A stretch of DNA of 64,000 nucleotides from Escherichia coli (GCF_001677475.2 NZ_CP015229.1); one strand, 5' to 3'. Positions 36,902-62,670 are shown, counted from the first letter of the stretch. Notes: a model not told the origin generated them from the letters alone. Made by a program: numbers and translations.

Positions 36902-36904
36902 GTT

Positions 36905-39123: not shown

Positions 39124-40149
39124 TTAATCCCAGCTCAGAATAACTTTCCCGGACTGGCCCGAACGCATGGCGTCAAAGCCCTTCTGGAAATCATCGATAG
39201 AGAAACGATGGGTAATGATCGGCGAGAGATCGAGGCCAGACTGAATCAGCGCCGCCATCTTGTACCAGGTTTCAAACATCTCACGACCGTAAATACCTTT
39301 AATGAACAAGCCTTTAAAGATCACTTTGGTCCAGTCGATAGACATATCAGACGGTGGAATACCCAGCATCGCAATGCGACCGCCGTGGTTCATGGTGTCG
39401 AGCATGGTACGAAACGCTGGCGGCGCACCGGACATTTCCAGACCGACATCAAAGCCTTCGGTCATGCCTAGCTCCGCCATCACGTCATTGAGATTTTCTT
39501 TCGCGACGTTAACCGCACGGGTGATACCCATTTTGCGCGCCAGCTCAAGGCGGTATTCGTTAACATCAGTAATCACCACGTTACGTGCACCAACGTGTTT
39601 CGCCACCGCCGCCGCCATAATACCAATCGGGCCTGCACCAGAGACCAGCACATCCTCGCCCACCAGATCAAACGACAGCGCGGTATGCACGGCGTTACCG
39701 AAGGGATCAAAAATGGAAGCCAGATCATCGGAGATATTGTCGGGGATTTTGAAAGCGTTGAACGCCGGAATCACCAGATACTCGGCGAAGCAGCCCGGAC
39801 GGTTAACGCCGACGCCGATCGTGTTGCGGCACAGATGGGTACGACCGCCACGACAGTTGCGACAGTGACCGCAGGTGATATGGCCTTCGCCAGAAACGCG
39901 ATCGCCAATCTTGAAGCCTTTCACTTCCTGACCAATACCTACCACTTCACCGACATATTCATGGCCCACGACCATCGGCACCGGGATGGTTTTTTGCGAC
40001 CACTCATCCCAGTTATAGATGTGAACGTCAGTCCCGCAGATGGCTGTTTTACGGATTTTAATCAGCAGATCGTTATGCCCGAGTTCCGGTACAGGAACGT
40101 CGGTCATCCAGATGCCCTCTTCCGCTTTCAGTTTGGATAACGCTTTCAT
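39124..40149 (-). CDS. tdh: L-threonine 3-dehydrogenase
   Basis: 341-aa zinc-dependent MDR-family ORF. Confidence 0.95.
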
Positions 40150-40158
40150 CTCACATCC

Positions 40159-41355
40159 TCAGGCGATAACGCCCAGTTGTTTACCAATACGCGTGAATGC
40201 TTCTACTGCACGCGTAATTTGCTCAGGGGTATGCGCCGCAGACATCTGGGTACGAATACGCGCCTGACCTTTCGGAACGACCGGATAGAAGAAACCGGTG
40301 ACGTAAATGCCCTCTTTTTGCAGCTCACGGGCAAATTTCTGCGCCACTACTGCATCACCAAGCATGACCGGAATAATGGCGTGATCGGCTCCCGCCAGGG
40401 TAAAGCCCGCCGCCGACATTTGCTCACGGAACTGACGCGCGTTCGCCCAGAGACGGTCACGCAGCTCGCTACCCGCTTCAACCATCTCCAGCACTTTGAT
40501 GGACGCGGCAACAATGGCCGGTGCCAGCGAGTTGGAGAACAGGTACGGACGAGAACGCTGGCGCAGCCACTCAACCACTTCTTTGCGCGCCGCGGTATAA
40601 CCACCAGAAGCCCCGCCCAGCGCTTTACCGAGCGTGCCGGTGATAATATCGACCCGGCCCATCACATCGCAGTATTCATGGGAACCACGACCGTTTTCAC
40701 CGACAAAACCTACCGCGTGGGAGTCGTCTACCATCACCAGGGCATCATATTTATCTGCCAGATCGCAAACGCCCTTCAGGTTGGCAATCACGCCGTCCAT
40801 CGAGAACACACCATCGGTGGCAATCAGCACATGACGCGCACCGGCTTCACGCGCTTCTTTCAGACGTGCTTCCAGCTCCTGCATATCGTTGTTGGCATAG
40901 CGATAGCGTTTAGCTTTGCACAGACGCACACCATCAATAATAGACGCGTGGTTCAGTGCGTCGGAGATAATGGCGTCCTCCGCGCCTAACAGCGTTTCGA
41001 ACAGGCCACCGTTAGCATCAAAGCAGGAAGAGTAGAGAATCGCATCTTCCATCCCCAGGAAGGCCGCCAGTTTTTGTTCAAGCTCTTTATGGCTGTCCTG
41101 AGTGCCGCAAATAAAACGCACCGAAGCCATGCCGAAACCGTGAGAATCCATTCCCGCCTTTGCTGCCGCAATCAGATCCGGATGATTCGCCAGCCCGAGA
41201 TAGTTGTTGGCACAAAAGTTAATGACGTGGCTTCCATCAGCCACAGTGATATCTGCTTGCTGCGCAGACGTAATAATGCGCTCTTCTTTAAACAACCCTT
41301 CCGCCCGTGCGGTTTCCAGATCGTTGGTTAACTGCTGATAAAATTCTCCACGCAT
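40159..41355 (-). CDS. kbl: 2-amino-3-ketobutyrate CoA ligase (glycine C-acetyltransferase)
   Basis: 398-aa PLP-dependent ORF, immediately upstream of tdh. Confidence 0.95.
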
Positions 41356-41568
41356 TGCGATTCTCCAGACAGGGCAAATTCCAGCACATATTACCCAAAC
41401 TTATAGGTCGCGACGAGATGACGCGTTAACACTTCTGCAAAATTCAGGATAAATAACGTCCATCAATCTCACTTTTGGCGAATGGCTGAAGCCAACGCCG
41501 TGTAGTGATATGATAGAAGTATTCGTGTCTGAGATTGTCTCTGACTCCATAATTCGAAGGTTACAGTT

Positions 41569-42501
41569 ATGATCATCGTTACCGGCGGCGCGGGCTTTAT
41601 CGGCAGCAACATCGTTAAGGCCCTGAATGATAAAGGCATCACCGATATTCTGGTGGTGGACAACCTGAAAGACGGCACCAAGTTTGTGAACCTGGTGGAT
41701 CTGAATATCGCGGACTATATGGATAAGGAAGACTTCCTGATCCAGATTATGGCTGGCGAAGAGTTCGGTGATGTCGAAGCGATTTTCCACGAGGGCGCAT
41801 GCTCTTCCACCACCGAGTGGGATGGCAAGTATATGATGGATAACAACTATCAATACTCCAAAGAGCTGTTGCACTACTGTCTGGAGCGCGAAATCCCGTT
41901 CCTGTATGCCTCTTCCGCAGCCACCTACGGCGGACGCACCTCCGACTTTATTGAATCCCGCGAATACGAAAAACCACTGAACGTCTACGGTTACTCAAAA
42001 TTCCTGTTTGATGAATATGTTCGTCAAATTCTGCCGGAAGCAAACTCACAGATTGTTGGCTTCCGTTATTTCAACGTTTATGGACCGCGTGAAGGCCATA
42101 AAGGCAGCATGGCGAGCGTCGCTTTCCATCTCAACACCCAGCTTAACAACGGTGAATCGCCAAAACTGTTCGAAGGTAGCGAGAACTTCAAACGCGACTT
42201 CGTCTATGTGGGCGACGTGGCAGATGTAAACCTGTGGTTCCTGGAAAATGGCGTTTCCGGCATCTTCAACCTCGGCACCGGTCGTGCGGAATCCTTCCAG
42301 GCTGTAGCTGATGCTACGCTGGCTTATCACAAGAAAGGCCAGATCGAATACATTCCGTTCCCGGATAAGCTGAAAGGCCGCTACCAGGCGTTCACTCAGG
42401 CAGATCTGACAAATCTGCGCGCGGCGGGTTACGACAAACCGTTCAAAACCGTTGCTGAAGGTGTAACGGAATACATGGCCTGGCTGAATCGCGACGCGTA
42501 A
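41569..42501 (+). CDS. hldD: ADP-L-glycero-D-manno-heptose 6-epimerase
   Basis: 310-aa [23 protein letters not shown]… NAD-binding motif; ATG 41569. Confidence 0.95.
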
Positions 42502-42503
42502 CT

Positions 42504-43550
42504 ATGAAGATTTTGGTGATAGGCCCGTCTTGGGTTGGCGACATGATGATGTCGCAAAGTCTCTATCGCACGCTCCAGGCGCGCTATCCCCAGGCGATAA
42601 TCGACGTGATGGCACCGGCATGGTGCCGTCCGTTATTATCGCGGATGCCGGAAGTTAACGAAGCTATCCCTATGCCTCTCGGTCACGGAGCGCTGGAAAT
42701 CGGCGAACGCCGCAAACTGGGTCATAGTCTGCGTGAAAAGCGCTACGACCGCGCCTACGTCTTACCTAACTCCTTCAAATCCGCATTAGTGCCTTTCTTC
42801 GCGGGTATTCCTCATCGCACCGGCTGGCGCGGCGAGATGCGCTACGGTTTACTCAACGATGTACGCGTGCTCGATAAAGAAGCCTGGCCGCTAATGGTGG
42901 AACGCTATGTCGCGCTGGCCTATGACAAAGGCGTTATGCGTACCGCACAAGATCTGCCGCAACCATTGTTATGGCCGCAGTTGCAGGTGAGCGAAGGTGA
43001 AAAATCATATACCTGTAATCAATTTTCGCTTTCATCAGAACGTCCGATGATTGGTTTTTGCCCGGGGGCGGAGTTTGGTCCGGCAAAACGCTGGCCACAC
43101 TACCACTATGCTGAGCTGGCAAAGCAGCTGATTGATGAAGGTTATCAGGTGGTTCTGTTTGGTTCGGCGAAAGATCATGAGGCGGGCAATGAGATACTCG
43201 CCGCACTGAATACTGAGCAGCAGGCATGGTGTCGGAACCTGGCGGGGGAAACACAGCTTGATCAAGCGGTTATCCTGATTGCAGCCTGTAAAGCCATTGT
43301 CACTAACGATTCTGGCCTGATGCACGTTGCGGCGGCGCTCAATCGTCCGCTGGTTGCCCTGTATGGTCCGAGTAGCCCGGACTTCACACCGCCACTATCC
43401 CATAAAGCGCGCGTGATCCGCCTGATTACCGGCTATCACAAAGTGCGTAAAGGTGACGCTGCGGAGGGTTATCACCAGAGCTTGATCGACATTACTCCCC
43501 AGCGCGTACTGGAAGAACTCAACGCGCTATTGTTACAAGAGGAAGCCTGA
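42504..43550 (+). CDS. waaF: LPS heptosyltransferase II
   Basis: 348-aa GT9 ORF, ATG 3 nt after the hldD stop. Confidence 0.95.
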   Translation: MKILVIGPSWVGDMMMSQSLYRTLQARYPQAIIDVMAPAWCRPLLSRMPEVNEAIPMPLGHGALEIGERRKLGHSLREKRYDRAYVLPNSFKSALVPFFAGIPHRTGWRGEMRYGLLNDVRVLDKEAWPLMVERYVALAYDKGVMRTAQDLPQPLLWPQLQVSEGEKSYTCNQFSLSSERPMIGFCPGAEFGPAKRWPHYHYAELAKQLIDEGYQVVLFGSAKDHEAGNEILAALNTEQQAWCRNLAGETQLDQAVILIAACKAIVTNDSGLMHVAAALNRPLVALYGPSSPDFTPPLSHKARVIRLITGYHKVRKGDAAEGYHQSLIDITPQRVLEELNALLLQEEA

Positions 43551-43553
43551 CGG

Positions 43554-44513
43554 ATGCGGGTTTTGATCGTTAAAACATCGTCGATGGGCGATGTTCTCCA
43601 TACGTTGCCCGCACTCACTGATGCCCAGCAGGCAATCCCAGGGATTAAGTTTGACTGGGTGGTGGAAGAAGGGTTCGCACAGATTCCTTCCTGGCACGCC
43701 GCCGTTGAGCGAGTTATTCCTGTGGCAATACGTCGCTGGCGTAAAGCCTGGTTCTCGGCCCCCATAAAAGCTGAACGCAAAGCGTTTCGTGAAGCGCTAC
43801 AAGCAGAGAACTATGACGCAGTTATCGACGCTCAGGGGCTGGTAAAAAGCGCGGCGCTGGTGACGCGTCTGGCGCATGGCGTAAAGCATGGAATGGACTG
43901 GCAAACCGCTCGCGAACCTTTAGCCAGCCTGTTTTACAATCGTAAACATCATATTGCAAAACAGCAGCACGCCGTAGAACGCACCCGCGAACTGTTTGCC
44001 AAAAGTCTGGGCTATAGCAAACCGCAAACCCAGGGCGATTATGCTATTGCACAGCATTTCCTGACGAACCTGCCTACAGATGCTGGCGAATATGCCGTAT
44101 TTCTTCATGCGACGACCCGTGATGATAAACACTGGCCGGAAGAACACTGGCGAGAATTGATTGGTTTACTGGCTGATTCAGGAATACGGATTAAACTTCC
44201 GTGGGGCGCGCCGCATGAGGAAGAACGGGCGAAACGACTGGCGGAAGGATTTGCTTATGTTGAAGTATTGCCGAAGATGAGTCTGGAAGGCGTTGCCCGC
44301 GTGCTGGCCGGGGCTAAATTTGTAGTGTCGGTGGATACGGGGTTAAGCCATTTAACGGCGGCACTGGATAGACCGAATATCACGGTTTATGGACCAACCG
44401 ATCCGGGATTAATTGGTGGGTATGGGAAGAATCAGATGGTTTGTAGGGCTCCGGGGAAAAGTTTAAATAATCTCAACGGTCAAGCAGTTTTGGAAAAGTT
44501 ATCATCATTATAA
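43554..44513 (+). CDS. waaC: LPS heptosyltransferase I
   Basis: 319-aa GT9 ORF. Confidence 0.95.
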   Translation: MRVLIVKTSSMGDVLHTLPALTDAQQAIPGIKFDWVVEEGFAQIPSWHAAVERVIPVAIRRWRKAWFSAPIKAERKAFREALQAENYDAVIDAQGLVKSAALVTRLAHGVKHGMDWQTAREPLASLFYNRKHHIAKQQHAVERTRELFAKSLGYSKPQTQGDYAIAQHFLTNLPTDAGEYAVFLHATTRDDKHWPEEHWRELIGLLADSGIRIKLPWGAPHEEERAKRLAEGFAYVEVLPKMSLEGVARVLAGAKFVVSVDTGLSHLTAALDRPNITVYGPTDPGLIGGYGKNQMVCRAPGKSLNNLNGQAVLEKLSSL

Positions 44514-44522
44514 AGGTAAAAC

Positions 44523-45788
44523 ATGCCAACCTTCATTAAACTTCATTCATGGAAACCTTACACTCTGAAATCATCTATGATTTTAGAGATAATAACTTAT
44601 ATATTATGTTTTTTTTCATTAATAATTGCATTCGTCGATAACACATTCAGCATAAAGATGTATAACATCACTGCTATAACTTGCTTATTGGCGCTAATTT
44701 TACGTGGCAGACAAAAAAATTACAATATAAAAAATCTTATTCTGCCCCTTTCTATAATTATTATAGGCTTGCTTGATTTAATTTGGTATTCTATATTTAA
44801 AGTAGATAACTCGCCATTTCGTGCTACTTACCATAGTTATTTAAATACTGCCAAAATATTTATATTTGGTTCTTTTATTGTTTTTTTAGCACTAACTAGT
44901 CAGCTAAAATATAAAAAAGAGAGTGTATTATACATTTTATATTCTCTGTCATTTATAATTGCTGGATATGCAATGTATATTAATAGCATTCATGAATATG
45001 ACCGTATTTCTTTTGGTGTAGGAACGGCAACAGGAGCGGCATATTCAACAATGCTAATAGGGATAGTTAGTGGTGTTGCGATTCTTTATACTAAGAAAAA
45101 CCATCCTTTTTTATTTTTATTAAATAGTTGCGCGGTACTTTATATTCTGGCGCTGACACAAACCAGAGCAACACTACTCCTGTTTCCTGTAATTTGTGCT
45201 GTTACATTAATAGCTTATTATAATAAATCACCTAAGAAATATACTTCCACTATTGTTCTTCTAATTGCTATATTGGCTAGTATTGTAATTATATTTAATA
45301 AACCAATACAGAATCGCTATAATGAAGCATTAAATGATTTAAACAGTTATACCAATGCTAATAGCGTGACTTCCTTAGGTGCAAGGCTGGCAATGTACGA
45401 AATTGGTTTGGATATATTCAAAAAGTCACCTTTTTCATTTAGATCTGCAGAGTCGCGCGCTGAAAGTATGAATTTGTTAGTTGCAGAACACAACAGGCTA
45501 AGAGGGGCATTGGAGTTTTCTAACGTACACCTACATAATGAGATAATTGAAGCAGCGTCACTAAAAGGTCTGATGGGGATTTTTTCCACCATTTTCCTCT
45601 ATTTTTCACTATTTTATACAGCATATAAAAAACGCGCATTGGGTTTGTTGATATTAACGCTTGGCATAGTGGGGATTGGACTCAGTGATGTAATCATATG
45701 GGCACGCAGCATTCCAATTATCGTTATATCCTCTATAGTCCTCTTGCTTGTTATTAATAACCGCAACAATACTATTAATCAAGAATAG
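44523..45788 (+). CDS. waaL: O-antigen ligase (K-12 core-type WaaL)
   Basis: 421-aa polytopic membrane ORF, very AT-rich; sequence matches my recollection of the K-12 WaaL variant. Confidence 0.85.
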   Translation: MPTFIKLHSWKPYTLKSSMILEIITYILCFFSLIIAFVDNTFSIKMYNITAITCLLALILRGRQKNYNIKNLILPLSIIIIGLLDLIWYSIFKVDNSPFRATYHSYLNTAKIFIFGSFIVFLALTSQLKYKKESVLYILYSLSFIIAGYAMYINSIHEYDRISFGVGTATGAAYSTMLIGIVSGVAILYTKKNHPFLFLLNSCAVLYILALTQTRATLLLFPVICAVTLIAYYNKSPKKYTSTIVLLIAILASIVIIFNKPIQNRYNEALNDLNSYTNANSVTSLGARLAMYEIGLDIFKKSPFSFRSAESRAESMNLLVAEHNRLRGALEFSNVHLHNEIIEAASLKGLMGIFSTIFLYFSLFYTAYKKRALGLLILTLGIVGIGLSDVIIWARSIPIIVISSIVLLLVINNRNNTINQE

Positions 45789-45795
45789 ACAAGTT

Positions 45796-45822
45796 TAAGA
45801 AGTGAGTTTTAACTCACTTCTT
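45796..45822. terminator. Hairpin at the convergent waaL / waaU junction
   Basis: Inverted repeat aagaagtgagtt / aactcacttctt; overlaps the waaU stop, so acts for both converging operons if functional. Confidence 0.4.
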
Positions 45823-46887
45823 ATCTATACAAATTAATCTCTTTACTGAATCAGTTAAAATTTCAGTATCGATATCTTTTATCGTAAGTGTTGGAGATAC
45901 TATTTGTATAGATTGATGATTATTCGGGGCCCAAATTAAATGTGAGGGATATTCTGGTGTACGTGAATTAGGATAAAATGCAAGAGTTGGTTTATGATAA
46001 GCAGTAGCGATATGAACAAGAGCAGTATCAACAGAAATGACAAAATCACTATACTTAGTCAACGCGACAGTATAAATAAACTCGTCAAATGGTAGTGTTT
46101 CAATTTCAGGTATTGGTATTGTCAATAAATCTTGCGGTAACCCAGTAAATATCACTCGATAATTCTCAAACTGGACTTTCACTTCTTGATATATAACTTT
46201 TATTTGCTCAAACGTAAGTCGGCATATTTTTTTTGCACCTAATGGATTAATGATGACTATCCTTGTATTTCCAATAAAATCTATTATTTTATTTTCAACA
46301 TCTACAGGCAAATGCAAGTCGTAGTCGGTGGAAAATTCACCCTCACCATAAATATGCTTCAGTATTTCTATTGCTCGTGTACTCATATGTTCTTTTAAAC
46401 ATTCATCATGGGGATGGTAAAATGAATAGTAACGCTTATACCATTGATCAAAACCCAGAATGTAAGAATATTTTAAACTTGATAATATTAAACTATGCTT
46501 AAATGAGGGCATAGTTTCAAAGGGGTCTAATACAATATCGAACTGTAAATCCCGCAGATGCTTACATAGAGTAAGCATTTTAAGGGAACCTGTTGATTCT
46601 TTAATACAGAATCCAAATATATTTTTATTGTTAGAGAGAAACTCCCCACCCTTTCTATTTGTGAGAATAGTTATTTTAACTCCTTTACTATAAAGCTCAC
46701 GATAAATCGAACTTAATACAATTAAATCACCGAGTTTATTATTATCATGAATGATAAGGCATGATTTAACTTGTGCGAGATCTGTAACTTGATTATTGAT
46801 TTTTTTACGAAATAAAAAAGAAAGAAAATTAATCTTGATTTTGTTTATATAAAATCTTTTCTTTTTGTGAAAAGTTCCTAAACGCAT
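45814..46887 (-). CDS. waaU: LPS heptosyltransferase IV WaaU (WaaK)
   Basis: 357-aa GT9-like ORF, last gene of the long waaQ operon. Confidence 0.85.
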   Translation of the reverse strand: MRLGTFHKKKRFYINKIKINFLSFLFRKKINNQVTDLAQVKSCLIIHDNNKLGDLIVLSSIYRELYSKGVKITILTNRKGGEFLSNNKNIFGFCIKESTGSLKMLTLCKHLRDLQFDIVLDPFETMPSFKHSLILSSLKYSYILGFDQWYKRYYSFYHPHDECLKEHMSTRAIEILKHIYGEGEFSTDYDLHLPVDVENKIIDFIGNTRIVIINPLGAKKICRLTFEQIKVIYQEVKVQFENYRVIFTGLPQDLLTIPIPEIETLPFDEFIYTVALTKYSDFVISVDTALVHIATAYHKPTLAFYPNSRTPEYPSHLIWAPNNHQSIQIVSPTLTIKDIDTEILTDSVKRLICIDKK

Positions 46888-46966
46888 TTTTATACCATAA
46901 TATTTTAGTTTCAGGATGATTAATTAGCATAAGAATCAGTTGAAGCTTTATATTCCATTTTTTTTC

Positions 46967-47782
46967 TTATCTTATCTTATCCTGTGACTTTGACTCTTCT
47001 GAACTGATATCGAGAGGCTTAATAAATGGAATTACATCGTAAGAAATAGCCGTATCATCTGACAAATTATAAATATTAATATCTTCTACATTATCACGCA
47101 TAAAACGGAAAAATGGCAAGATTTTAAACAAATCCCTACTCAATTCCGAGGGCATAGGATTGTTACTTTCGTCATAGAAACGAGTACAACTACCAGTTAA
47201 ATCAAGACCAGAACAAATAATCCGCGCATACTTCAGCGAATAGGCTATTTGGATTGCAGCAAAGGCAACGGTATGGCATGAACAATAACCGAGATTAATA
47301 TCCTTGCAAAAGCCAACCAGACGACCTTTTTTAGAAAAAGGTACAGAAATCAGGAGCTCTTTATGAATTCGGCTCAAAATATTAAACTTAATCTTCTTAA
47401 TCAATCCACCTTTTTCTCTGCGGTAAAATGAACGTAGTACCAAGCAGTTTTGAAGGATGTACCGTTTATCTTCTTCAGAAGCATGTTCATAAACATCAAC
47501 ATTTACGATGGTATAACGACTTCTCTGGCTAAATTTATAAAAATCATCACGTCGTTGATGTAAAAAGCGAACATCAGTAAGTACATAAATATACGGAATA
47601 ATATTATGACTTAATAGATATTGCGCAGAACCATTGACAGCAATAACATCCCTTGTCTGCAGCACTGACAATGGTGTTTTTTGCGATGTGGGGCCGGAAA
47701 GAAAAATAATAACATCATCAGACGTTTTACTTTCTATCAGGTTCTCAACATCTTTTTTGCCAATGTATCTAATATTCTTCAT
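46967..47782 (-). CDS. waaZ: LPS core biosynthesis protein WaaZ
   Basis: 271-aa ORF in the K-12-type position between waaY and waaU; start codon not verified. Confidence 0.8.
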   Translation of the reverse strand: MKNIRYIGKKDVENLIESKTSDDVIIFLSGPTSQKTPLSVLQTRDVIAVNGSAQYLLSHNIIPYIYVLTDVRFLHQRRDDFYKFSQRSRYTIVNVDVYEHASEEDKRYILQNCLVLRSFYRREKGGLIKKIKFNILSRIHKELLISVPFSKKGRLVGFCKDINLGYCSCHTVAFAAIQIAYSLKYARIICSGLDLTGSCTRFYDESNNPMPSELSRDLFKILPFFRFMRDNVEDINIYNLSDDTAISYDVIPFIKPLDISSEESKSQDKIR

Positions 47783-47853
47783 GATAAACCTGTGAAATAA
47801 GAACTCCGCATAGAAATGTCCTGATGAAGACGTTTAAACGTAAGACGTTTACT

Positions 47854-48552
47854 TTATCGTGCTGGCTTCCCTTTCAAACGCCGCATAAGATTACGTATTT
47901 TTTTACGATAAACTAAAATATAATAACCGAGATCTTTAATCTCATTCTTAATACCATAATGTCGCTCTAAATCAATACGATCTTTCGCTTTACGTTGTGC
48001 AGATGCCCGTTTTCCTGAAAGATCAATAATGCGTACTTCACCATTTTCAATAATAAAATTACCACGGTGAGGATCACCAGATACCATACCATGTTCGTGC
48101 AATGAACGGATTGATTGTTGAATTTTATTTTTTAACGTTTCATCAATGTCGGGGATATCACACAACTCTACGCCATCGATATATTCGATAAGCATGATAT
48201 AAGTATGGACAAAACGTAATGTTTTCCGTTCTGCCAATAAATAAAAATCATTGAGTGTATTTAACCCTTCATTTCTTACTTTTTGGGTTTGCTCAAAAAG
48301 GCGTTCGTAATAATCACCTTTTAACAGAGACTTAAAGAAACGTTCGTTACGCTTAACTTTCGGAGAAAAAACCTTAAGAATCAATTTGCCGTAATCGGTA
48401 TCAATAAGCATAACTTTTGTATCATCAATAGAACGAAAAACCTTGATGATATTTATATTATAAGACAAGAAGTCATTTAATACATTGAGATACTTTGAAT
48501 TGTTTTCATCGGTAAAAACAACCAAGTCTTTGATCTTGCTCTTCTGAAACAT
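47854..48552 (-). CDS. waaY: LPS core heptose II kinase WaaY
   Basis: 232-aa kinase-like ORF. Confidence 0.85.
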   Translation of the reverse strand: MFQKSKIKDLVVFTDENNSKYLNVLNDFLSYNINIIKVFRSIDDTKVMLIDTDYGKLILKVFSPKVKRNERFFKSLLKGDYYERLFEQTQKVRNEGLNTLNDFYLLAERKTLRFVHTYIMLIEYIDGVELCDIPDIDETLKNKIQQSIRSLHEHGMVSGDPHRGNFIIENGEVRIIDLSGKRASAQRKAKDRIDLERHYGIKNEIKDLGYYILVYRKKIRNLMRRLKGKPAR

Positions 48553-48569
48553 AATAAACCAGTTAAGTG

Positions 48570-49586
48570 TTATTTACGGTAATATTTTCGGCAAAGATAA
48601 CAGACTCCTGCTATAATTCCTGAGATATAGTTATGCTGCACTAAAAGATGTTTATATCTTTTTTTAAATTCAATAATTGATTTTGCATCTCGTGGAGAGT
48701 CATCTTTCCATGGTGAATTTTCTAAAGCTATTTTATAGTATTTTACCGATGGATAAATTGCCCATTTGTGCCACGGTTTAGTTGCACCTGTATAATGAAT
48801 AAGCAGAGTACTTTCTGTAATCAGCTTTTTATAGTTTTGATGTGTTTTGTCTTTTAATTCACTTTTAATTGTATAAATTGTATTGTACTCACGAGGCAAA
48901 AATATTGTCATCCCTTTCAGTAAGACATTCATAACATCCTGATCAGGGTATTTATAAACATTATCTTTACTCATAAGAATAGACAACGCTTTTTCGGTTA
49001 GTTTTGCGTTAGCCCATTTTTTTAAATCTAAATAAACGACACCGGAATTAAAGTACTGCCCAAGTAATTCAGGATCAGACAACCTGGATGCCGCCTTTTC
49101 CTGCATTGGGTCAACATCTTTAACAACAGCAGCAACCGCTCCGTTTAAATCCAGATGCAATAGTTGGCTAATATCGCCTTTACAAACAACATCTGCATCA
49201 AGATAAAGCAAACGATTAAGCGTTAAACCCAATAATTGAAATGCAAATAAACGGAAGTACATTGCTCTTGACCAAACTTGTGTACAAGGCAAGCACTGAA
49301 GATTATCAGTATTTATTCTATAAAGTGTGATTCTTAATTGGTATTGCTCAGCAAGTTTTGCGACTTTTTGAAAGAAATCGTCGCTATAAACATCAGCAAT
49401 AATATAAAAATCAAGATTAACATGTCGATTATTGATGACAATTGAAGTAATGGATACACCTACAGCATCAAGATAATTTGCATCGACACCATAGGCAACA
49501 TTTAAACTTTCAGCAGTATTTTCATCAATAAGCCTAAAATCCCAAGCTTTAACTTTATCTATCTCTATGGCAGGAAATGAGTCCAC
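48570..49586 (-). CDS. waaJ: GT8 LPS alpha-1,2-glucosyltransferase WaaJ (WaaR)
   Basis: 338-aa family-8 glycosyltransferase. Confidence 0.85.
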   Translation of the reverse strand: MDSFPAIEIDKVKAWDFRLIDENTAESLNVAYGVDANYLDAVGVSITSIVINNRHVNLDFYIIADVYSDDFFQKVAKLAEQYQLRITLYRINTDNLQCLPCTQVWSRAMYFRLFAFQLLGLTLNRLLYLDADVVCKGDISQLLHLDLNGAVAAVVKDVDPMQEKAASRLSDPELLGQYFNSGVVYLDLKKWANAKLTEKALSILMSKDNVYKYPDQDVMNVLLKGMTIFLPREYNTIYTIKSELKDKTHQNYKKLITESTLLIHYTGATKPWHKWAIYPSVKYYKIALENSPWKDDSPRDAKSIIEFKKRYKHLLVQHNYISGIIAGVCYLCRKYYRK

Positions 49587-49625
49587 AAGGCTACCCTTAT
49601 ATCATTACTTTATAGTTTCCCAGTT

Positions 49626-50645
49626 TTAATTCTTTATCTTTTCAATAAAATAAAAAAGATAGTTGCTAAATCCTTTTAGATATCTATGCTTTTTAAGCAT
49701 ATGTTTTGCGCTATATCTTAATTGATTGCTATTATTCGGTTTCAGCAACGCCGTACTCTTCCATGGCGAAGCATTTTTTGCCTCCATAAAGGCTTGTGAT
49801 ACAGGATAATCCCAAGCCCAATCATGCCAGGGCTTGGTTGGACCGATATAGTGGATAAAAATAGTATCGTTGGTTACTGGGTTTGTAAAACTTTCTTTGA
49901 GTTGATAGTTTAAGCTAAACTGGGTGTTATATTTAATATCAGCAAAAATAAGTCTGTCTGCCAGCAACATATTTAATACATCCTGATCAGGATGTGTTAT
50001 TTTTTTGACTATTTCCGAATCATTTAGCATTGCAATGGCTCGTGCAGAAACCTGCTGAGCCGCCCATTGGTCAGTATTAATCAATAAAAAACCGGAGTTA
50101 AAGTAACCTTTAGCAATTCCCGCAACACCTAACGAATGTGCGCGTTTTTCCCACCAGTCAGCTTGCCCTTCTGTAACAACCATTGCGACTTTATCGTCAG
50201 GAAATGAGAATTTAATTAGGGGCTCAATAGTCCCCTGACAAATGATATCTGCATCCAGATAAAGGACTTTAGCCGCCTTATTAATAAAGTAATCTGCAAT
50301 AACAAAACGAAAATATATTGCATGAGTCCAGTTCTTTGTGCTAGGCAATGAGCGCAGTCGATCACCATTAATCAGATATATTTTAATTCTGGTTTTATAC
50401 TGCAACGCCAGTGCATCAAAATATTTACGATCATCATCACCAAAATAATCAGTAAAAATATGGAAGCACAATCGACTTCCTTCATTATACTTTAATATTG
50501 AAGCAATCGAAATTCCGCAACCAAATAGAAAATTTTTGTCAGTTCCATAAGCGATGTCCAGACAAAGATTTTCTGTTTCTACTTTATGATTATAATCAAT
50601 AACTGAATTAAGAAACTCAGTCTCCTGGAAAAACACCTGCTGCAT
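49626..50645 (-). CDS. waaO: GT8 LPS alpha-1,3-glucosyltransferase WaaO (WaaI)
   Basis: 339-aa family-8 glycosyltransferase, paralogous to the adjacent waaJ. Confidence 0.85.
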   Translation of the reverse strand: MQQVFFQETEFLNSVIDYNHKVETENLCLDIAYGTDKNFLFGCGISIASILKYNEGSRLCFHIFTDYFGDDDRKYFDALALQYKTRIKIYLINGDRLRSLPSTKNWTHAIYFRFVIADYFINKAAKVLYLDADIICQGTIEPLIKFSFPDDKVAMVVTEGQADWWEKRAHSLGVAGIAKGYFNSGFLLINTDQWAAQQVSARAIAMLNDSEIVKKITHPDQDVLNMLLADRLIFADIKYNTQFSLNYQLKESFTNPVTNDTIFIHYIGPTKPWHDWAWDYPVSQAFMEAKNASPWKSTALLKPNNSNQLRYSAKHMLKKHRYLKGFSNYLFYFIEKIKN

Positions 50646-51724
50646 TATTTCCTCCGGGAAATAGCAGAAATAATTATCTTATGTAATCTATCGTAATACT
50701 TCGATTTATAAAACTTATCGATCGACTCAGGAATTTTTTCATGTTCGATATGAATTTCACCTGCTATATATTTATTGAGAAGAGTTACAAAACCAGCAAT
50801 ATCTCCCGGTTGATACAGATGACCATTAACATCAGGTTGAATAATGTCAGCAGGCCCGGAGACACAATCGGCGCTGATGCAAGGAATTCCCCATGACAAG
50901 GCTTCAAGTAGGGTCATTGGGAAACCTTCAAAAGATGACGTGAGCAATAACGCACTCACTTTTTTAATATCTTGCTGGACCAATTCCCAGGGATGTTGTT
51001 GCCAACCATACCAGACAACTCGATCATCAATATTTAATTCTCTACCATAAGCCTGGCATTTTTCGAAATCGGAGCCATCTCCCAATACATGAAGTTTCCA
51101 GTCACCTTGCACTTGTGATAAGCCATCAAGGAGGTCTTTAACCCGCTTCTGGCCCTCGAATTTCATACGCCCAACATAAATGAACGTTGCCGTTTCACCT
51201 TCCTCAGGCCCAGGAATAACTGTGTCTTTAGCTTCGACTGGATTAAAAATAACATTTATCGTCGATTCTGGTACACCCCGATTAATCATTTGCTGTTTAA
51301 TGCCAGAGCTGATGGCTAAATGATAATCGGCACAGGTGATATATTCAGCATGTTTTTTGTGATCTAAAGAAAAATGCGGCCATGAAAATACAGGTACATC
51401 AATTCCCGATTTTTTACGAGCTTTGGCCGCATACAAACACGAGATCACGTCAATACAAATAACAACATCTGGCTGATAATCCTGAAGCCATTTGCTTAAA
51501 GCATGAATATGTTTCGCCCGACGCAAACAACCTAAGCGAATATTGGAAAATGAACACGAGTACTTAATACCGTCCAGCCATCCCTTATCCATTTTGTCAT
51601 TACGACAAAAGAAAAACATTTCACTATGGATATGTTGTTGCCTGAAGGTAGTAATAACATCACGAATGACTGTTTCCATGCCGCCAAATCCAGAAACAGC
51701 TTCGCCGATAAATGCTATTTTCAT
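50645..51724 (-). CDS. waaB: GT4 LPS alpha-1,6-galactosyltransferase WaaB
   Basis: Track ORF 369 aa; start taken at ATG 51724 (MKIAFIGEAVSGFGGMETV…, 359 aa); ATG 51736 and GTG 51754 are alternatives. Confidence 0.85.
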   Translation of the reverse strand: MKIAFIGEAVSGFGGMETVIRDVITTFRQQHIHSEMFFFCRNDKMDKGWLDGIKYSCSFSNIRLGCLRRAKHIHALSKWLQDYQPDVVICIDVISCLYAAKARKKSGIDVPVFSWPHFSLDHKKHAEYITCADYHLAISSGIKQQMINRGVPESTINVIFNPVEAKDTVIPGPEEGETATFIYVGRMKFEGQKRVKDLLDGLSQVQGDWKLHVLGDGSDFEKCQAYGRELNIDDRVVWYGWQQHPWELVQQDIKKVSALLLTSSFEGFPMTLLEALSWGIPCISADCVSGPADIIQPDVNGHLYQPGDIAGFVTLLNKYIAGEIHIEHEKIPESIDKFYKSKYYDRLHKIIISAISRRK

Positions 51725-51767
51725 TGAAACTCTCATTAATTGAGTAAAACTCACTGTTTTAATGGTT

Positions 51768-52692
51768 TTATTTTTCTATAAAATCAGAAACAATTGTTGA
51801 CATCATTTTATCAGGGCTGAATTTATATAAACTATCATAATCCATTGGTTTAACAGATGAGTTAATAAAATACTCTAACTTATCCCAATCATCATGCCCC
51901 ATTATAAAAAAGCGAGATTCACTATAGATTTCTGAACCAAGGATATTTATATTATTAGTAATTAATTTTTTATTGAAAAATAGTGCCTCAAGTATACGAA
52001 GAGTCCAGCCAGATTGGTTTTCTTTAGTTATATCAATAATTATATTAGCATTTAATATGCTCTTCATAAGGTAATTGCTTTTCAATCAAATACTTTGAAG
52101 TCGGAGATGATGTCTTATCTTTGACAACATTAAAATCTAGCTTACATCCTAGTGCTGTTAATCTATCGGCTAATTCATTAATTATTTGAAGACGTCCTTT
52201 ATCACGACCAAGAAAAAAACATATTGGCTGACTGTTATTTTTGTCAGATAAACTATAATTTATAATTTCATCCATTCCTATAGGAAAAAATCATTTTATT
52301 GCCTTGGTCTTTTCATTCCCTATAAATCTATGCTCAAAATTATAGATAATATCAAAATAATTAGAGTTATCAAAAATAAAATCTTCGCTGACAGTATTTC
52401 TTAGAAGTAATAGTTTACGATAATTAATATTTCTTAATATTTGCTTGTTAATACCTTTATTAATGACACTGTCATTAAAGATAATTATATCATCCTTTTT
52501 TACAGCATTTAGGTGATGTTTGATAAATAATCGCCCCAACCATGCATTATCCATCCCTAATTTCGAAATTTTCTTATTAACCCAGTTGTATTTGTTTGGT
52601 GTTGTTATATTTTTTATCTTGTACTTTTTTTTCAGGTACTGGATCATCTTTAATTCATAATCTGCAACCCAGTTTATAAAATAAATAGTCAT
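51768..52692 (-). pseudogene. waaS: waaS-like LPS core gene disrupted by an in-frame TGA and a frameshift
   Basis: Three consecutive minus-strand ORF fragments (52291..52692, 52045..52275, 51768..52085) together span 925 nt where one ~311-aa gene is expected. Fragments 1 and 2 share a frame and are separated by TGA (52291-52293); fragments 2 and 3 overlap in different frames. Confidence 0.6.
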
Positions 52693-52728
52693 AATGAAGT
52701 TAATTCCAGTACATACTGATAAATATTT

Positions 52729-53526
52729 TTATAATCCTTTGCGTTGTGTTCGCTCTTTAATATGCTCGGCCTTAACACTTGCCATGTTCAATAAATTCCG
52801 TTCAAGAGATAATATCTTACGTAAAGGCATCCCAAAATAAACCTTCATAAATCGCCAGATATCTCTCTGCGTTAGACCAATATTCATTGATGAGAAATAT
52901 AAACCAATCAAATCTTTATCCCGCCAACGACGTGGTACTTTTGCCCGTATCTGCGCGCGATGCAGGTCTATTACCGAAATTTTTAACCCATCTTCCCGGC
53001 CAGTAAATGGCAAATGGAGCAAAAAGTGGCAAATATAACAGTCGCGGTGATTTATCCCTGCGGCGTGCATTTTGTGCACCATGGTTGCCACACGCGCGAT
53101 CAGCATACGCTTAATATGTACATCAGGCGGGTTGACCGCCCAATCTGCACAATAATCTTCAAGGCTAATCGTGGGAGTGAGATCTTCGGTAATAATAAAT
53201 GATGTGCGAGTTAATGGATTTAACCCTTTTTCACCAAACCCTATTCCGTGCATCGTATCAACACCGACATCATGCAGTCGATGAATAGCGTGCCACTCTC
53301 TGTCTGCGCCTAAAACGGGCATCCGCAATGAGAGCAGGTTTTTTATAATTTCTTTTAAAGTCGTCCCTTTGTGCCACTTGAGGAAATAGCTTTTCCCGGC
53401 CAGTTCAAAGCGTAATGTGCGACGCGTCTCGAGTTCACGAAAGACCTCGCCATTCAGTTTTTTAACTTCTGCAAAGGCATCTTTACCACGCCAGAGTGTG
53501 GCAAGTGGCTCTTTTAATTCAACCAT
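52729..53526 (-). CDS. waaP: LPS core heptose I kinase WaaP
   Basis: 265-aa kinase-like ORF, overlaps the waaG 3' end by 8 nt. Confidence 0.9.
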
Positions 53527-54643
53527 CTAAACCACCAGTAATGATATCTGCCGCTTTCTCCGGCAAGCTATACAAATCCTGAGTATCGGCGTAATACCGA
53601 GCATTCTCCGCCCAAGCCATGCGCAATGGAGATTGAGTTAACGCTTTACGTAAAACGTCATTTAATTGTTCCTGGGAGAAAGGTTCAGCGATGACCGTTC
53701 CACAATTAGCATCCGCAATATAATGCGCGTACCCACATACCGCTGTTGTTAAAACAGGTAATCCAGCAGTGATCGCTTCAAGAAGAACGATACCCGCGGC
53801 TTCCTGATAAGCGGGATGCAGTAATAAATCAGCGGCTGCCATTAATTCTGACACATCATTGCGACCGGAGAAGAAATGCACATTGCTCCGCACGCCGAGT
53901 TTTTCTGCCAGCGCTTCAAACTTTCGCGGTTTATCCTGCCCAACAACAAATAACAGCGTATTGTGACGTAATGATTCCGGTAACGATGCCAAAGCTTCAA
54001 TTGAGCGATCCACACCCTTACGGCCAAAATCTGATCCAACCTGCAGTAATAAGTTTTGTTGTTCAGTGATGCCATTTTTCTGGCGATAAATTTCACGACT
54101 GTTTGGGATTTGCGCGCTGTATTTTCTGTCCGGGTAGATACCAGGAGGAAGAATTTGAAAACGTTCTGGTTCAGTTTGGTAATGCTTCTGGAAATCGGCG
54201 ATTTGCTTATCCGTCAGCATCATGAGTTTCGTCGGTTTACCATGCTCGAAAGTCGCTCGCTCAAATGCAGCATAATGGCGATAGCGTGATGTTAAACGAT
54301 AGAACAAGCCCTTTTCTTGCGCCACTTTCTCGGCATAACAGACATCAGCGGCAAAATAAACATCCAGCCCTGGCATCTTATTAAAGCCAACAACCCGATC
54401 AGCGGGATGTCCCTTCAGATGGTTTTGAACCCAGGCATAATATTCTGCATTACGTCCATGGTTAGTATGGGATTTAACCGGTACGCGAATAAGCTCAAAT
54501 GCATCCGGGCAATCGCCTTCCCACGACTGTGTATATACCCGAACATGGTGGCCCCGTGTGGCAACTGTTGAGGCAATACGCATAAAGTCACGCTGTAACC
54601 CACCAAATGGAAAATATTTATATAAGCAAAACGCCACGATCAT
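53519..54643 (-). CDS. waaG: GT4 LPS glucosyltransferase I WaaG
   Basis: 374-aa ORF recognised as WaaG. Confidence 0.95.
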
Positions 54644-55674
54644 AATTGTGCATTCCTGTCAGCTGAAGGGGCATCTTCTGGCAACAGCTTTTCCGTAGCG
54701 GCAATGACATCTTCCGCTGGAATAACAGAAAGATATTTTTTGTTGCGGTCAAGTTCGTGCCGGGTAGGCATTTTTTGATAATTCCCCGCCCAGAACTGAA
54801 TAATATTCTCGGTCCATGGACGCCAGAATACATGATCAGTAGCCCCAAACAGGCTAATAACTGGCGTGTTCACCGCCGCCGCAATATGCCCCGGCGCAGA
54901 ATCCACACCAATAAAGAGCACTGCATGATCAATTAATGCGCCCAGTTCAGGAAAACGTGTTTTACCGGCAAGGCCGGTAATAGGTTTTGTTTGGCAGCCT
55001 CGTGCAATTTCATCTACGCAAGCGAGATCATCTGCCGAAGGGCCACAAGTCAGCACAACCTGATAACCACGATGTTGCAACGCATCGATAACCATAGAAA
55101 ATTTATCGTTATCCCAGCACTTAAATAGCTGTCGGGCTGTCGGCTGGATGACGACATAATGATCTTTCACGCCCAGTGCATCTAATTCCTGGCGCATTTT
55201 CTTCCAGCAATCATCAGCATAACTCATTGTTGTTTCAGTATAAAAATCGGTAATACCTAATGACTCAAGGACCGACAAATTACGCTCAACAATATGTGTA
55301 CCGTGTATAGGCGCTAAGTGTGTAAAGCTTTTTTTCCAAATGCCATGCTGCCGATGAGCATAAAGCTGCGATATTTTCATCCGTGCAGGTAAACAACGTA
55401 CCAGCAGGGCCACCATCCACTGATCCGTAAGATTAATGACCAGGTCGTAATTATTCGCACGCAGAGTTTTTATCAGTGAAAGTGCATTTTTAATTTTATC
55501 GAATGTTCCCGCACCTTTATTGCTTATACCATAGAGTGCATTAATTTCTGGGTTTTCAGATAAAATCGGAATTGTATCCTGGTAAAGCAGCATATCGATT
55601 TTAGCATTGGGATAATTCTGCTTGAGTGTACTGATTACAGGAGTAGTTAATAACATATCTCCGTGATATCGCAT
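54640..55674 (-). CDS. waaQ: LPS heptosyltransferase III WaaQ
   Basis: Track ORF begins at GTG 55710 (356 aa); I choose ATG 55674 (MRYHGDMLL…, 344 aa); start not certain. Confidence 0.85.
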   Translation of the reverse strand: MRYHGDMLLTTPVISTLKQNYPNAKIDMLLYQDTIPILSENPEINALYGISNKGAGTFDKIKNALSLIKTLRANNYDLVINLTDQWMVALLVRCLPARMKISQLYAHRQHGIWKKSFTHLAPIHGTHIVERNLSVLESLGITDFYTETTMSYADDCWKKMRQELDALGVKDHYVVIQPTARQLFKCWDNDKFSMVIDALQHRGYQVVLTCGPSADDLACVDEIARGCQTKPITGLAGKTRFPELGALIDHAVLFIGVDSAPGHIAAAVNTPVISLFGATDHVFWRPWTENIIQFWAGNYQKMPTRHELDRNKKYLSVIPAEDVIAATEKLLPEDAPSADRNAQL

Positions 55675-55757
55675 CTTTATGACCAGGATTTTTCGAAATG
55701 GCTTTTCCACTAGCGACTCTTTTGTGTGATTGTCTGGTTAAGTTAAGCAGAAAAAAG

Positions 55758-55769
55758 CACGCTACCGCC
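55758..55769 (-). promoter_or_regulatory. ops element (RfaH recruitment site) in the waaQ operon leader
   Basis: Exact 12-mer GGCGGTAGCGTG on the transcribed (minus) orientation, reverse complement of cacgctaccgcc at 55758-55769, ~85 nt upstream of the waaQ start. Confidence 0.75.
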
Positions 55770-56114
55770 CCAGGCTCAACAGCTACCCGAATACTGATAA
55801 CGCACTTACTTTGACGCGCTAGTGTATCATTTCTTTCGCAGCAATCCGACCCGAATGATTTTTATACACAAAATATGATTTAACCATAAAAATCATATAG
55901 ATAAAATTTTGCATACAGAGAATCCAGATATTGTCTATGTAAAGTTGCAATCCTGGCTGAAATTCAATGAATCGCATAAAAATACAAAAAAATGAAGATT
56001 TAGCAGCAGATCAGCTCAAACAGAGACTATTTAAGTCAAAAACGGGAAAAGTAATGGTAAAGCCACAGCTAAATACATAGAATCCCCAGCACATCCATAA
56101 GTCAGCTATTTACT

Positions 56115-57879
<1,765 letters not shown>

Positions 57880-57886
57880 CGTTTAT

Positions 57887-57908
57887 GCCGGATGGTATGC
57901 CATCCGGC
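57887..57908. terminator. Hairpin between convergent coaD and mutM
   Basis: gccggatgg-tatg-ccatccggc, perfect 9-bp stem, 7 nt after the coaD TAG and 9 nt before the mutM stop. Confidence 0.45.
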
Positions 57909-57917
57909 TCGCATCAA

Positions 57918-58727
57918 TTACTTCTGGCACTGCCGACAATAAAACGTTGCCCGCTGCGCATGTTTAGTCGCCACAATCGGCGTACCGCACACCCGACACG
58001 GCTCGCCTTTTCGCCCGTAAACCTGCAATTCCTGCGCGAAATAGCCCGGTTTACCATCACTTTGCAGAAAATCTTTCAGAGTTGTACCACCCTGCTCAAT
58101 CGAACGCAGCAACACCGCTTTAATCACCCGAGCTAACAATTCACACTCTGCCAGCGACAGTGATGACGCCAGCCGATCCGGATGGATCCCCGCCGCAAAC
58201 AGTGATTCGCTGGCATAGATATTCCCTACCCCTACCACCAGCTTGTTATCCATCAGCCACGGTTTAATCGCCGTTTTTTTCTTCTCGCACTTCTGATGCA
58301 GGTACTCACCGTTGAAATCGTCGCTAAGCGGCTCCGGTCCAAGATGGGCCAGCACGTTGTGCCCTTCCAGCTCTTTGGTCCACAGCCAGGCACCAAAGCG
58401 GCGCGGATCGGTGTAGCGCAGCACTTTACCGTTGCTCATCACCAAATCAACATGGTCATGCTTTTCAGGGGGAAGTTCTTCTGGAAGGATGCGCAGGCTG
58501 CCAGACATCCCCAAATGAATGATAATCCAGCCCTCAGGCAGCTCCAGCAGCAGATATTTAGCCCGCCGCTGCACGCTAAGCACTGGTTGGTCGCTTAAAC
58601 GGTAGATCTCTTCTGAAACCGGCCAGCGCAAGCGTCCGTTGCGCACCACCGCATGAAGAATGGTTGCACCAACGAGATGCGGTTCTATGCCGCGACGGCT
58701 GGTTTCAACTTCGGGTAATTCAGGCAT
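57918..58727 (-). CDS. mutM: Formamidopyrimidine-DNA glycosylase
   Basis: 269-aa ORF starting [13 protein letters not shown]…; C-terminal zinc finger [25 protein letters not shown]. Confidence 0.95.
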
Positions 58728-58776
58728 AGCATCTCCAGGAATGAACAGATGCAGTCAATATGGGGGCAGGCAGATA

Positions 58777-58805
58777 ACAAAAAACCCCGCCGGGGCGAGG
58801 TTTTT
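58777..58805 (-). terminator. Intrinsic terminator downstream of rpmG (rpmBG operon)
   Basis: On the minus strand a GC-rich hairpin (plus-strand ccccgccggggcgagg, 58785-58800) is followed by a T-run (plus-strand aacaaaaaa, 58777-58784); located between rpmG stop and mutM start. Confidence 0.6.
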
Positions 58806-58824
58806 CGTTACATCAAAGCAAAAA

Positions 58825-58995
<171 letters not shown>

Positions 58996-59012
58996 TTATT
59001 TCCTCTAAGTAC

Positions 59013-59270
<258 letters not shown>

Positions 59271-62665: not shown

Positions 62666-62670
62666 TATGA

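Follow-up and report, generated by a model that had tools for sequence, protein, structure and literature searches.

A K-12-type core cassette in the waa locus of Escherichia coli: AT-rich, very probably exchanged between lineages, and carrying a waaS pseudogene

A 64,000-nucleotide (nt) stretch of Escherichia coli DNA (GCF_001677475.2, NZ_CP015229.1) contains a waa (rfa) locus for the lipopolysaccharide (LPS) core, and the centre of this locus is visibly AT-rich. This raises the question of whether the AT-rich segment is a core-type cassette that has been exchanged between lineages and, if so, where it ends, which core type it specifies, and how its composition arose. The type of LPS core has a bearing on how O-antigen is ligated, on phage receptors, on recognition by serum and antibodies, and on typing schemes. 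Coordinates are positions in the 64,000-nt stretch, which as a whole is called the window. An original prediction, made from the sequence alone, had drawn the segment from waaL to waaS at 44523-53526 and regarded it as a horizontally exchanged cassette of the K-12 core type. We conclude with high confidence that this segment is the cassette by which the Escherichia waa locus sets its core type, that it is of the K-12 type and has been exchanged between lineages, and that this copy is without an intact waaS.

Composition and borders of the AT-rich segment

Base composition sets the segment clearly apart. GC (guanine plus cytosine) content was 33.3% across 44523-52728 (8,206 bp) versus 51.5% in the remainder of the window (chi-square p = 2e-205), and non-overlapping 500-bp windows had a mean GC of 0.334 inside the segment (n = 16) versus 0.515 outside (n = 110; Mann-Whitney p = 2e-10). 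GC across the cluster was not uniform, as the original prediction had held, and the sliding profile dropped into a sharp trough from ~44400 to ~52850. The genes waaL, waaU, waaZ, waaY, waaJ, waaO, and waaB, together with the fragments of waaS, had GC values of 0.26-0.40 and GC at third codon positions (GC3) of 0.18-0.34. First and second positions (GC1 and GC2) were reduced as well. The claim that the outer-core genes are AT-rich with A/T-ending codons was borne out; the AT-rich segment is genuine and its codon bias lies far beyond chance. The further claim of a contrast with the other waa genes stood for hldD, waaF, waaC, and waaA (GC 0.51-0.54, GC3 0.48-0.63) but needs qualifying for waaP, waaG, and waaQ, which were intermediate (GC 0.44-0.46, GC3 0.39-0.42) and do not belong to the same class as those four.

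Elsewhere in the window, low GC was confined to shorter stretches. The separate LPS glucuronic-acid transferase gene waaH (yibD; 37851-38885, minus strand) has a GC of 0.46, with local 500-bp windows at 0.39-0.42. Further short patches at 19800-20900, 8700-9100, 5300-5700, and 2700-3200 (500-bp GC 0.34-0.42) fall at or close to intergenic regions, such as the one separating mtlR/yibT/yibL from a DUF3251 gene. None of these low-GC patches comes near the waa cassette in length.

We located the borders by comparison with one annotated locus, from a single genome, for each core type: KE58 (K-12 type), Nissle (R1), DDG206 (R2), O26 RM10386 (R3), and one R4 strain. On the left, homology by blastn was lost at 44458 (R1), 44434 (R3), and 44471 (R4), inside the last 40-80 nt of waaC (43554-44513, plus strand), which already belong to the variable block. 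Megablast agreed on these breakpoints, with the query ending at 905 (R1), 881 (R3), and 918 (R4). On the right, homology to R1, R3, and R4 was regained at 52833-52834, ~105 nt before the stop codon of waaP (52729-53526, minus strand). Between 44435 and 52833, the window could be aligned to these three types only as patches of 64-67% identity in waaY and waaO. The blastn breakpoints coincide with the GC steps: on the left, GC drops at ~44400-44500 within the 3' end of waaC (0.48 to 0.33 over 44350-44450), and on the right it rises at ~52750-52900. We accordingly place the core-type-specific cassette (33% GC) at 44435-52833, with the same ends as the insert of a sequence type 131 (ST131) strain described below.

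The right end of the original prediction needed correction. Position 53526 is the start codon of waaP and is not the end of the AT-rich block (~52833), and the interval said to hold eight genes contains nine gene slots, waaP included. Only the last ~105 nt of waaP, which encodes the 265-aa (amino acid) heptose I kinase (GC 0.44; NCBIfam RfaP equivalog, 462 bits), fall within the AT-rich cassette.

To the right of 52833, the locus does not return at once to the level of the backbone. Identity to R1, R3, and R4 was ~75-78% at the nucleotide level in waaP, ~75-80% among the DNA alleles of waaP, waaG, and waaQ, and 60-82% across these genes and their leader, before identity to all core types jumped to 96-100% at 56100, at the start of waaA (56115-57392, plus strand), where backbone-level conservation returns. 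The proteins of waaG (53519-54643, minus strand; GC 0.46) were 96.8-97.1% identical to K-12 and R2 and 89-90% to R1, R3, and R4. Those of waaQ (54640-55710, minus strand; GC 0.44) were 96-98% identical to K-12 and R2 and 72% to R1, R3, and R4; both genes carry alleles of a K-12/R2 family. Because identity stays at 60-82% past 52833 and rises only at 56100, the locus has two layers. The inner layer is the non-homologous cassette of 33% GC at 44.4-52.8 kb. The outer layer, at 52.8-56.1 kb, is homologous but deeply diverged (44-46% GC), with one allele family in K-12/R2 and another in R1/R3/R4.

Exchange between lineages and the origin of the low GC

The most direct evidence for exchange came from ST131 strain 2822 (O25b:H4), whose backbone belongs to phylogroup B2. 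Its K-12-type locus has the cassette gene set of the window and is 92.9% identical to it over waaL-waaS. Unlike the window, however, it carries waaP, waaG, and waaQ of the R1 family, 68-83% identical to other K-12-type alleles, the window's included. This K-12-type cassette is set in an R1-family backbone, with flanks 98.1% (left, up to waaC) and 98.8% (right) identical to R1 Nissle, the similarity on the right beginning at about nt 105 of waaP. The two junctions (ST131 locus 4500-12878) map to ~44458 and ~52834 in the window, which are the ends of the AT-rich segment. Since waaP, waaG, and waaQ of ST131 are of the R1 family, the unit of recombination there is the AT-rich cassette alone. The ST131 locus thus shows directly that the flagged segment acts as a replaceable cassette.

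Substitution density told a similar story for the window itself. Relative to the five nearest cassette relatives, substitutions amounted to 0.37-0.63% over 43501-56250, compared with 2.2-3.0% over 40001-43500 and 1.0-1.7% over 56251-58000 (chi-square p from 1e-21 to 1e-45; a 500-bp profile was also made). A near-identical block of ~12.7 kb is thus common to different backbones. The window's waaP, waaG, and waaQ are nearer to the R2 strain than to KE58, which we take as another sign of mosaicism. With the ST131 mosaic and the ~12.7-kb tract of low divergence, the predicted horizontal exchange of a core-type cassette found its support.

We found no integrase, insertion sequence (IS), or phage genes at the borders in either the open reading frame (ORF) map or the annotations of homologous loci. 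An Rfam scan of 41000-58000 found no transfer RNA (tRNA), a JUMPstart element being its sole match. The block is not a classical genomic island: its borders lie inside waaC and waaP, and it is exchanged through homologous recombination within the conserved flanking DNA rather than inserted at a specific site. In the scheme we propose, five alternative gene sets, all equally AT-rich (30-40% GC), can occupy this site. The cassette is one of them and passes from one lineage to another when the conserved flanks recombine. The left crossover falls in the 3' end of waaC, and the right crossover in the 3' end of waaP or farther right, in the waaQ-waaA spacer.

Several points weigh against this interpretation. 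Neither mobile-element genes nor a tRNA flank the block, the comparison used one genome per core type, and the allele that the window's lineage has in common with eight E. coli genomes may have been transferred either way. The search for a low-GC donor consisted of a WaaL scan of 100,044 species-representative genomes, large protein-database searches not being part of it, and it yielded no donor, matching only Escherichia sp. E1V33 (92.4% nucleotide identity over the locus) and one contig of a metagenome-assembled genome (MAG). Furthermore, AT-richness is equal in all five cassettes, so a foreign origin, if there was one, would be ancient, and the low GC could partly be kept in place. As to the MAG contig, CALVRS010000082.1 is a 4.8-kb piece of an 'uncultured Bacilli bacterium' that is 92% identical to the Escherichia waaC-waaJ region, probably through bin contamination.

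These considerations bear on the strongest alternative, namely that the low GC was generated or is maintained in situ and is not a foreign mark, the core types being old balanced alleles of Escherichia. Selection might favour AT-rich sequence here (through control by H-NS and RfaH, or low expression), or the low GC might follow from the amino acids that the ligase and membrane-associated glycosyltransferases are made of. In keeping with this alternative, the outer-core genes of all five core types have a GC of 0.30-0.40, GC1 and GC2 are lowered besides GC3, and the scan and the flanks offered neither a donor taxon nor nearby mobile-element genes. The synonymous divergence (dS) between K-12-type alleles, 0.12-0.44, is above that of waaC and waaA (0.05) and overlaps that of waaF (0.12) and hldD (0.18), which suggests, but does not establish, that the alleles are old. 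However, mutation bias alone could hardly keep GC3 at 0.18-0.34 when the genome stands at ~0.5-0.6. In situ maintenance is also compatible with exchange between lineages, as seen in the ST131 mosaic and the tract of reduced single-nucleotide polymorphism (SNP) density, and competes only with a foreign origin. We consider it an unlikely explanation overall that is nevertheless a live partial rival. An exchanged cassette whose low GC may be of foreign origin is the interpretation that we carry forward.

Core type, gene content, and the waaS pseudogene

We next turned to which core type the cassette specifies. The gene order is hldD, waaF, waaC, and waaL on the plus strand, then waaU, waaZ, waaY, waaJ, waaO, waaB, waaS, waaP, waaG, and waaQ on the minus strand, followed by waaA on the plus strand. 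This ORF map is collinear with RefSeq-annotated K-12-type loci in both order and orientation. By BLASTP against the reference loci, WaaL (44523-45788, plus strand; 421 aa, GC 0.32) was 92.6% identical at the amino acid level to the K-12 type and 30-32% to R1 and R4, with no match to R2 or R3 WaaL at E < 1e-5. WaaU (rfaK, the glycosyltransferase family 9 [GT9] heptosyltransferase IV; 45814-46887, minus strand; 357 aa, GC 0.31) was 92.2% identical to the K-12-type protein and had no homologue in the R1, R2, R3, or R4 reference loci. WaaZ and WaaB matched the K-12 and R2 types only, and the WaaS fragments the K-12 type only.

The remaining gene content agreed with this assignment. The waaU gene is present in place of waaK, waaV, waaX, or waaD, and waaZ, waaB, and the family 8 glycosyltransferase (GT8) pair waaO and waaJ (waaR) are all in the locus. 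Sequence of waaS, though inactivated, sits at the waaB-waaP position, as in the K-12 type. Markers of other types were not found among those sought, namely waaV, waaW, and waaT (R1), waaX (R4), and waaD (R3). The best identities of the GT8 proteins to those of R1, R3, and R4 were 40-57%. K-12 core type is therefore supported, as judged from sequence comparison, and the original assignment to K-12 rather than R1-R4 stood up in the BLASTP comparison of WaaL and the GT8 proteins, whose best matches were of the K-12 type. That assignment had cited the presence of waaS, waaB, waaZ, and waaU. All four sequences are indeed present, but waaS is a pseudogene in three ORF fragments.

Profile searches identified most of the individual genes. 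NCBIfam equivalog matches above cut-off were obtained for WaaP, for the Kdo (3-deoxy-D-manno-octulosonic acid) III transferase WaaZ (46967-47782, minus strand; 271 aa; 540 bits, model positions 1-265 of 269), and for the heptose II kinase WaaY (47854-48552, minus strand; RfaY, 394 bits). The same held for the GT8 alpha-1,3 hexosyltransferase WaaO (rfaI; 49626-50645, minus strand; 578 bits, 96.8% to the K-12-type protein) and the GT4 1,6-galactosyltransferase WaaB (50645-51724, minus strand; 603 bits, 94.2%). The GT8 alpha-1,2-glucosyltransferase WaaJ (48570-49586, minus strand) was 93.8% identical to K-12-type RfaJ and 40-44% to the GT8 proteins of R1, R3, and R4. NCBIfam profiles gave no match for WaaL and only a sub-threshold heptosyltransferase I match for WaaU, so the identities of these two rest on BLASTP to annotated loci, on Pfam Wzy_C (found on a protein identical to WaaL), and on GT9, the family under which RefSeq names waaU. 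Ratios of nonsynonymous to synonymous divergence (dN/dS) relative to the K-12 type were 0.04-0.19 across the intact cassette genes (0.17 for waaL); these genes are under purifying selection and have retained function.

An alternative reading is that the locus is of R2 or hybrid K-12/R2 core type. In its favour, waaZ, waaY, waaJ, waaO, and waaB are common to R2 at 90-92% nucleotide identity, waaP, waaG, and waaQ are nearer to DDG206 (94-100% in most 200-bp windows) than to KE58 (88-98%), and hybrids of the two types are documented (PMC13293308). However, the genes that discriminate between the types are both of K-12: WaaL resembles its K-12 counterpart and has no R2 match, and waaU is present with waaK absent. 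Neither WaaK nor WaaL of DDG206 found a match, R2 genomes covered only 67% of the query by megablast, and the waaS pseudogene occupies the site at which DDG206 has a GT8-family gene (12351-13331 of its locus). We consider an R2 or hybrid assignment very improbable and retain the K-12 type.

As a K-12-type cassette, the locus would be expected to build the K-12 outer-core sugar structure, a GlcI-GlcII-GlcIII chain bearing Gal on GlcI and HepIV on GlcIII. WaaO and WaaJ would add GlcII and GlcIII, WaaB the galactose (Gal) branch, and WaaU HepIV; WaaY would phosphorylate HepII, WaaZ would add Kdo III, and WaaL would ligate O-antigen. Rightward transcription takes in hldD, waaF, waaC, and then waaL. 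The leftward waaQ operon, read from upstream of waaQ by way of its JUMPstart/ops leader, has waaU, waaZ, waaY, waaJ, waaO, waaB, and waaS as its distal part. That leader is well defined: the JUMPstart element (Rfam RF01707; 55758-55796, minus strand) scored 53.1 bits against a gathering score of 35, lies 48 nt upstream of the waaQ start, and includes the ops motif GGCGGTAG of JUMPstart in the waaQ 5' leader. The site GGCGGTAGCGTG is the sole ops match in the window, where 0.09 would be expected. Consensus scans of 44000-56300 for promoters and terminators gave counts at shuffle expectation. The ops element recruits RfaH, an anti-terminator that suppresses polarity in long operons (PMC6358824), and the ten-gene, AT-rich operon may be read to its distal end through RfaH.

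The clearest departure from a typical K-12-type locus is waaS (51768-52692, minus strand), which is broken into three ORF fragments of 133, 76, and 105 aa. Alignment to the intact rfaS of DETEC-S792 and KE58 revealed two lesions. The first is a CA>TG change at 52293-52292 (minus strand) that turns codon 134 (CAA) into TGA, and the second is an 11-bp deletion between two ATTAA direct repeats at ~52051. The sequence is otherwise ~98% identical at the nucleotide level to variant-type rfaS, and its C-terminal fragment matches the NCBIfam WaaS/CpsH family. The window has 5-6 private substitutions in waaS, where the rate in the rest of the block predicts 1.3 (Poisson p = 0.002-0.01), an excess of the kind that neutral decay would leave in an inactivated gene. 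Among public assemblies, 30 indexed blocks contain the exact 133-aa fragment, all 24 of the contigs read carry it, and the lesion is fixed in a natural lineage.

Given that frameshifts annotated in AT-rich genes of close relatives (O158:H23 rfaS; SCU-301 waaZ, rfaY, and rfaJ) could be homopolymer errors, one might ask whether chance fluctuation, or an artefact of sequencing or assembly, accounts for the AT-rich stretch or for the lesions in waaS, but this is hardly credible: the GC contrast, whose significance is given above, recurs in every genome compared, the lesions are a two-base substitution and a deletion between direct repeats and not homopolymer slips, the same fragment recurs across those assembly blocks and contigs, and an assembly of an independent read set (ERR3309125) matches 20.4 kb of the window at 99.96% identity, its sole gap being 5 nt in waaZ. 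Over 41523-48788, identity between the window and the NCBI assembly GCA_031299685.2 is 100%.

Of the two enzymes that act on Kdo, WaaZ transfers Kdo III, and WaaS is the rhamnosyltransferase behind non-stoichiometric, Kdo-linked (inner-core) rhamnose glycoforms (PMC6358824). Because WaaS makes a non-stoichiometric, inner-core modification, its loss would leave the outer-core type unaffected, and the predicted product is a K-12 outer core without non-stoichiometric rhamnose on Kdo. Among relatives, the frameshifts in O158:H23 rfaS and in SCU-301 waaZ, rfaY, and rfaJ may reflect homopolymer assembly errors in AT-rich DNA or real decay. The O158:H23 genome (GCA_018986795.1) is listed as 'K-12-like with two waaS genes' (PMC13293308), and the 'two waaS genes' correspond to its split waaS. 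Annotation of this region is uneven in other ways, waaL having been left unannotated in both DETEC-S792 and O158:H23.

Two smaller variants accompany the waaS lesions. At the 3' end of waaZ, the pentamer TAAGA (coding strand; 46955-46969) occurs in three copies versus two in all close relatives, and the extra copy brings the stop 14 codons earlier, giving 271 aa compared with 285 aa in the nearest relatives and 283 aa in KE58. Copy number varies within the lineage, with two in ERR3309125 and three in GCA_031299685.2. Since the native WaaZ of R2 has only 269 aa, the shortening is probably tolerated. We considered waaZ as a second pseudogene and rejected it, as only the last 14 codons are lost, the family model is covered to 265 of 269 positions, and the R2 protein is of similar length.

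The second variant lies at the junction (42499-42506) between hldD (rfaD; 41569-42501, plus strand) and waaF (42504-43550, plus strand). Both are backbone genes: HldD (310 aa, GC 0.51) is 99.7-100% identical to its counterparts in six reference loci and is annotated as rfaD in homologous loci, and WaaF (GC 0.54) is 99.4-99.7% identical. Their spacer is 2 nt in the window versus 9 nt in six aligned E. coli loci, owing to a 7-bp deletion (GAGCTCT) that removes the AAGAG Shine-Dalgarno kept in those loci. Assemblies that share the window's WaaL have the same junction, and translation of waaF may rely on translational coupling. Just upstream, htrL/yibB is absent between kbl and hldD (41356-41568), as it is in Nissle, DETEC-S792, and the R4 strain; it is present in K-12-type KE58 and in O26.

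Allele, lineage, and comparison with known core loci

How common is this cassette? A full-length K-12-type cassette was found in 1,030 of 5,426 complete E. coli genomes. A further group of genomes, covering 67% of the query, was R2, and the remainder matched waaC only. Across the 10-kb query 44000-54000, only 8 of the 5,426 genomes reached 99.2-99.5% identity, compared with 93.0% for K-12-type reference strains and 94.5% for a few strains; ST131 reached 91.4% over a waaC-waaG query. DNA identity over waaL-waaS was 92.7% to KE58, 92.9% to ST131, and 94.6% to MFDS1022581. The window's copy is thus a rare K-12-type allele, ~7% diverged from K-12-type reference strains.

The flanks of the window differed in how closely they were matched in the same genome set. 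On the left, the best matches were 95.7% (1-24000, at 88% coverage) and 96.3% (24000-41400), and on the right (56100-64000) identity reached 99.3% (E. coli 042 and others). The left-flank values suggested a cryptic Escherichia clade, which was not upheld over 28.5-44.4 kb: the window was 96.9-97.3% identical to B1, B2, and R4 reference genomes, which are 97.2-97.9% identical among themselves. A 1,554-aa ORF at 21241-25905 (plus strand) matches a variable YadA-like adhesin gene and probably lowers flank identity. From the ORF map and the annotation of 042, the Fic-family gene between aldB and yiaY in that strain appears to be absent from the window (~7866-7893).

One account of these observations is a natural Escherichia lineage, absent from the complete genomes, that came to share a rare K-12-type core allele with a few E. 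coli strains by recombination and then fixed the loss of waaS. We hold this account to be evenly balanced between true and false. If it is correct, the lineage would make K-12-type LPS without stress-inducible rhamnose glycoforms and would have an unusual 2-nt hldD-waaF junction too. It could then offer a natural experiment, on a small scale, on what the Kdo-rhamnose modification does in recognition by phages or the host.

The AT-rich centre of the waa locus and its reading as a product of exchange have already been published, which makes this case real but ordinary. Leclercq et al. (2021) described five waa loci that share conserved waaDFC and waaA-waaQGP around a variable centre of lower G+C content, with a slight G+C dip at waaQGP and no remnants of phages, IS, or transposons (Tn) (PMC8715443). 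They considered horizontal gene transfer (HGT) via homologous recombination the most likely explanation for waa variability, and found the K-12 core within phylogroup B2 to be confined to STc131 (PMC8715443). Earlier studies of the locus, which they cite, underlie their account. What the present analysis adds are corrected coordinates, exact breakpoints, the ST131 mosaic with the same breakpoints, the rare ~7%-diverged K-12-type allele, and the lineage-fixed waaS pseudogene. These are useful for annotation and in silico core typing, where a split waaS and the waaP boundary can mislead.

Among known loci, the nearest are those of the eight genomes with the variant allele, namely 18KM2445, DETEC-S792, MEW, O158:H23 CFIAFB20140388, SCU-301, and others, which show low divergence to the window across 43.5-56.3 kb. 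They differ from it in their left flanks (2.2-3.0% diverged), in a 9-nt hldD-waaF spacer, and in having two TAAGA copies in waaZ. Of the five that are annotated, waaS is intact in DETEC-S792, 18KM2445, MEW, and SCU-301 and is marked as frameshifted in O158:H23.

The K-12-type locus of KE58 (hldD-waaFCL and waaQGPSBOJYZU) resembles the window in gene order and orientation, GC profile, K-12-type WaaL and WaaU, and JUMPstart/ops leader. Within the cassette, however, the two are only 92.7% identical in DNA, and in waaP, waaG, waaQ, and the leader identity is 90-93%. The window differs from KE58 in its waaS pseudogene, a WaaL longer by 2 aa, an hldD-waaF spacer shorter by 7 bp, and the absence of htrL/yibB.

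The R2 core type and the related Salmonella-type arrangement have waaZ, waaY, waaJ, waaO, waaB, and the allele family of waaP, waaG, and waaQ in common with the window. In R2, however, waaK replaces waaU and WaaL is unrelated, and DDG206 has a GT8 gene instead of waaS. The hldD-waaF spacer of DDG206 is also enlarged, to ~80 nt. The R1, R3, and R4 types share with the window the chromosomal site, the flanking genes, and an equally AT-rich outer-core block, but their outer-core genes are non-homologous or 30-59% identical at the amino acid level, and their WaaP, WaaG, and WaaQ are 72-90% identical.

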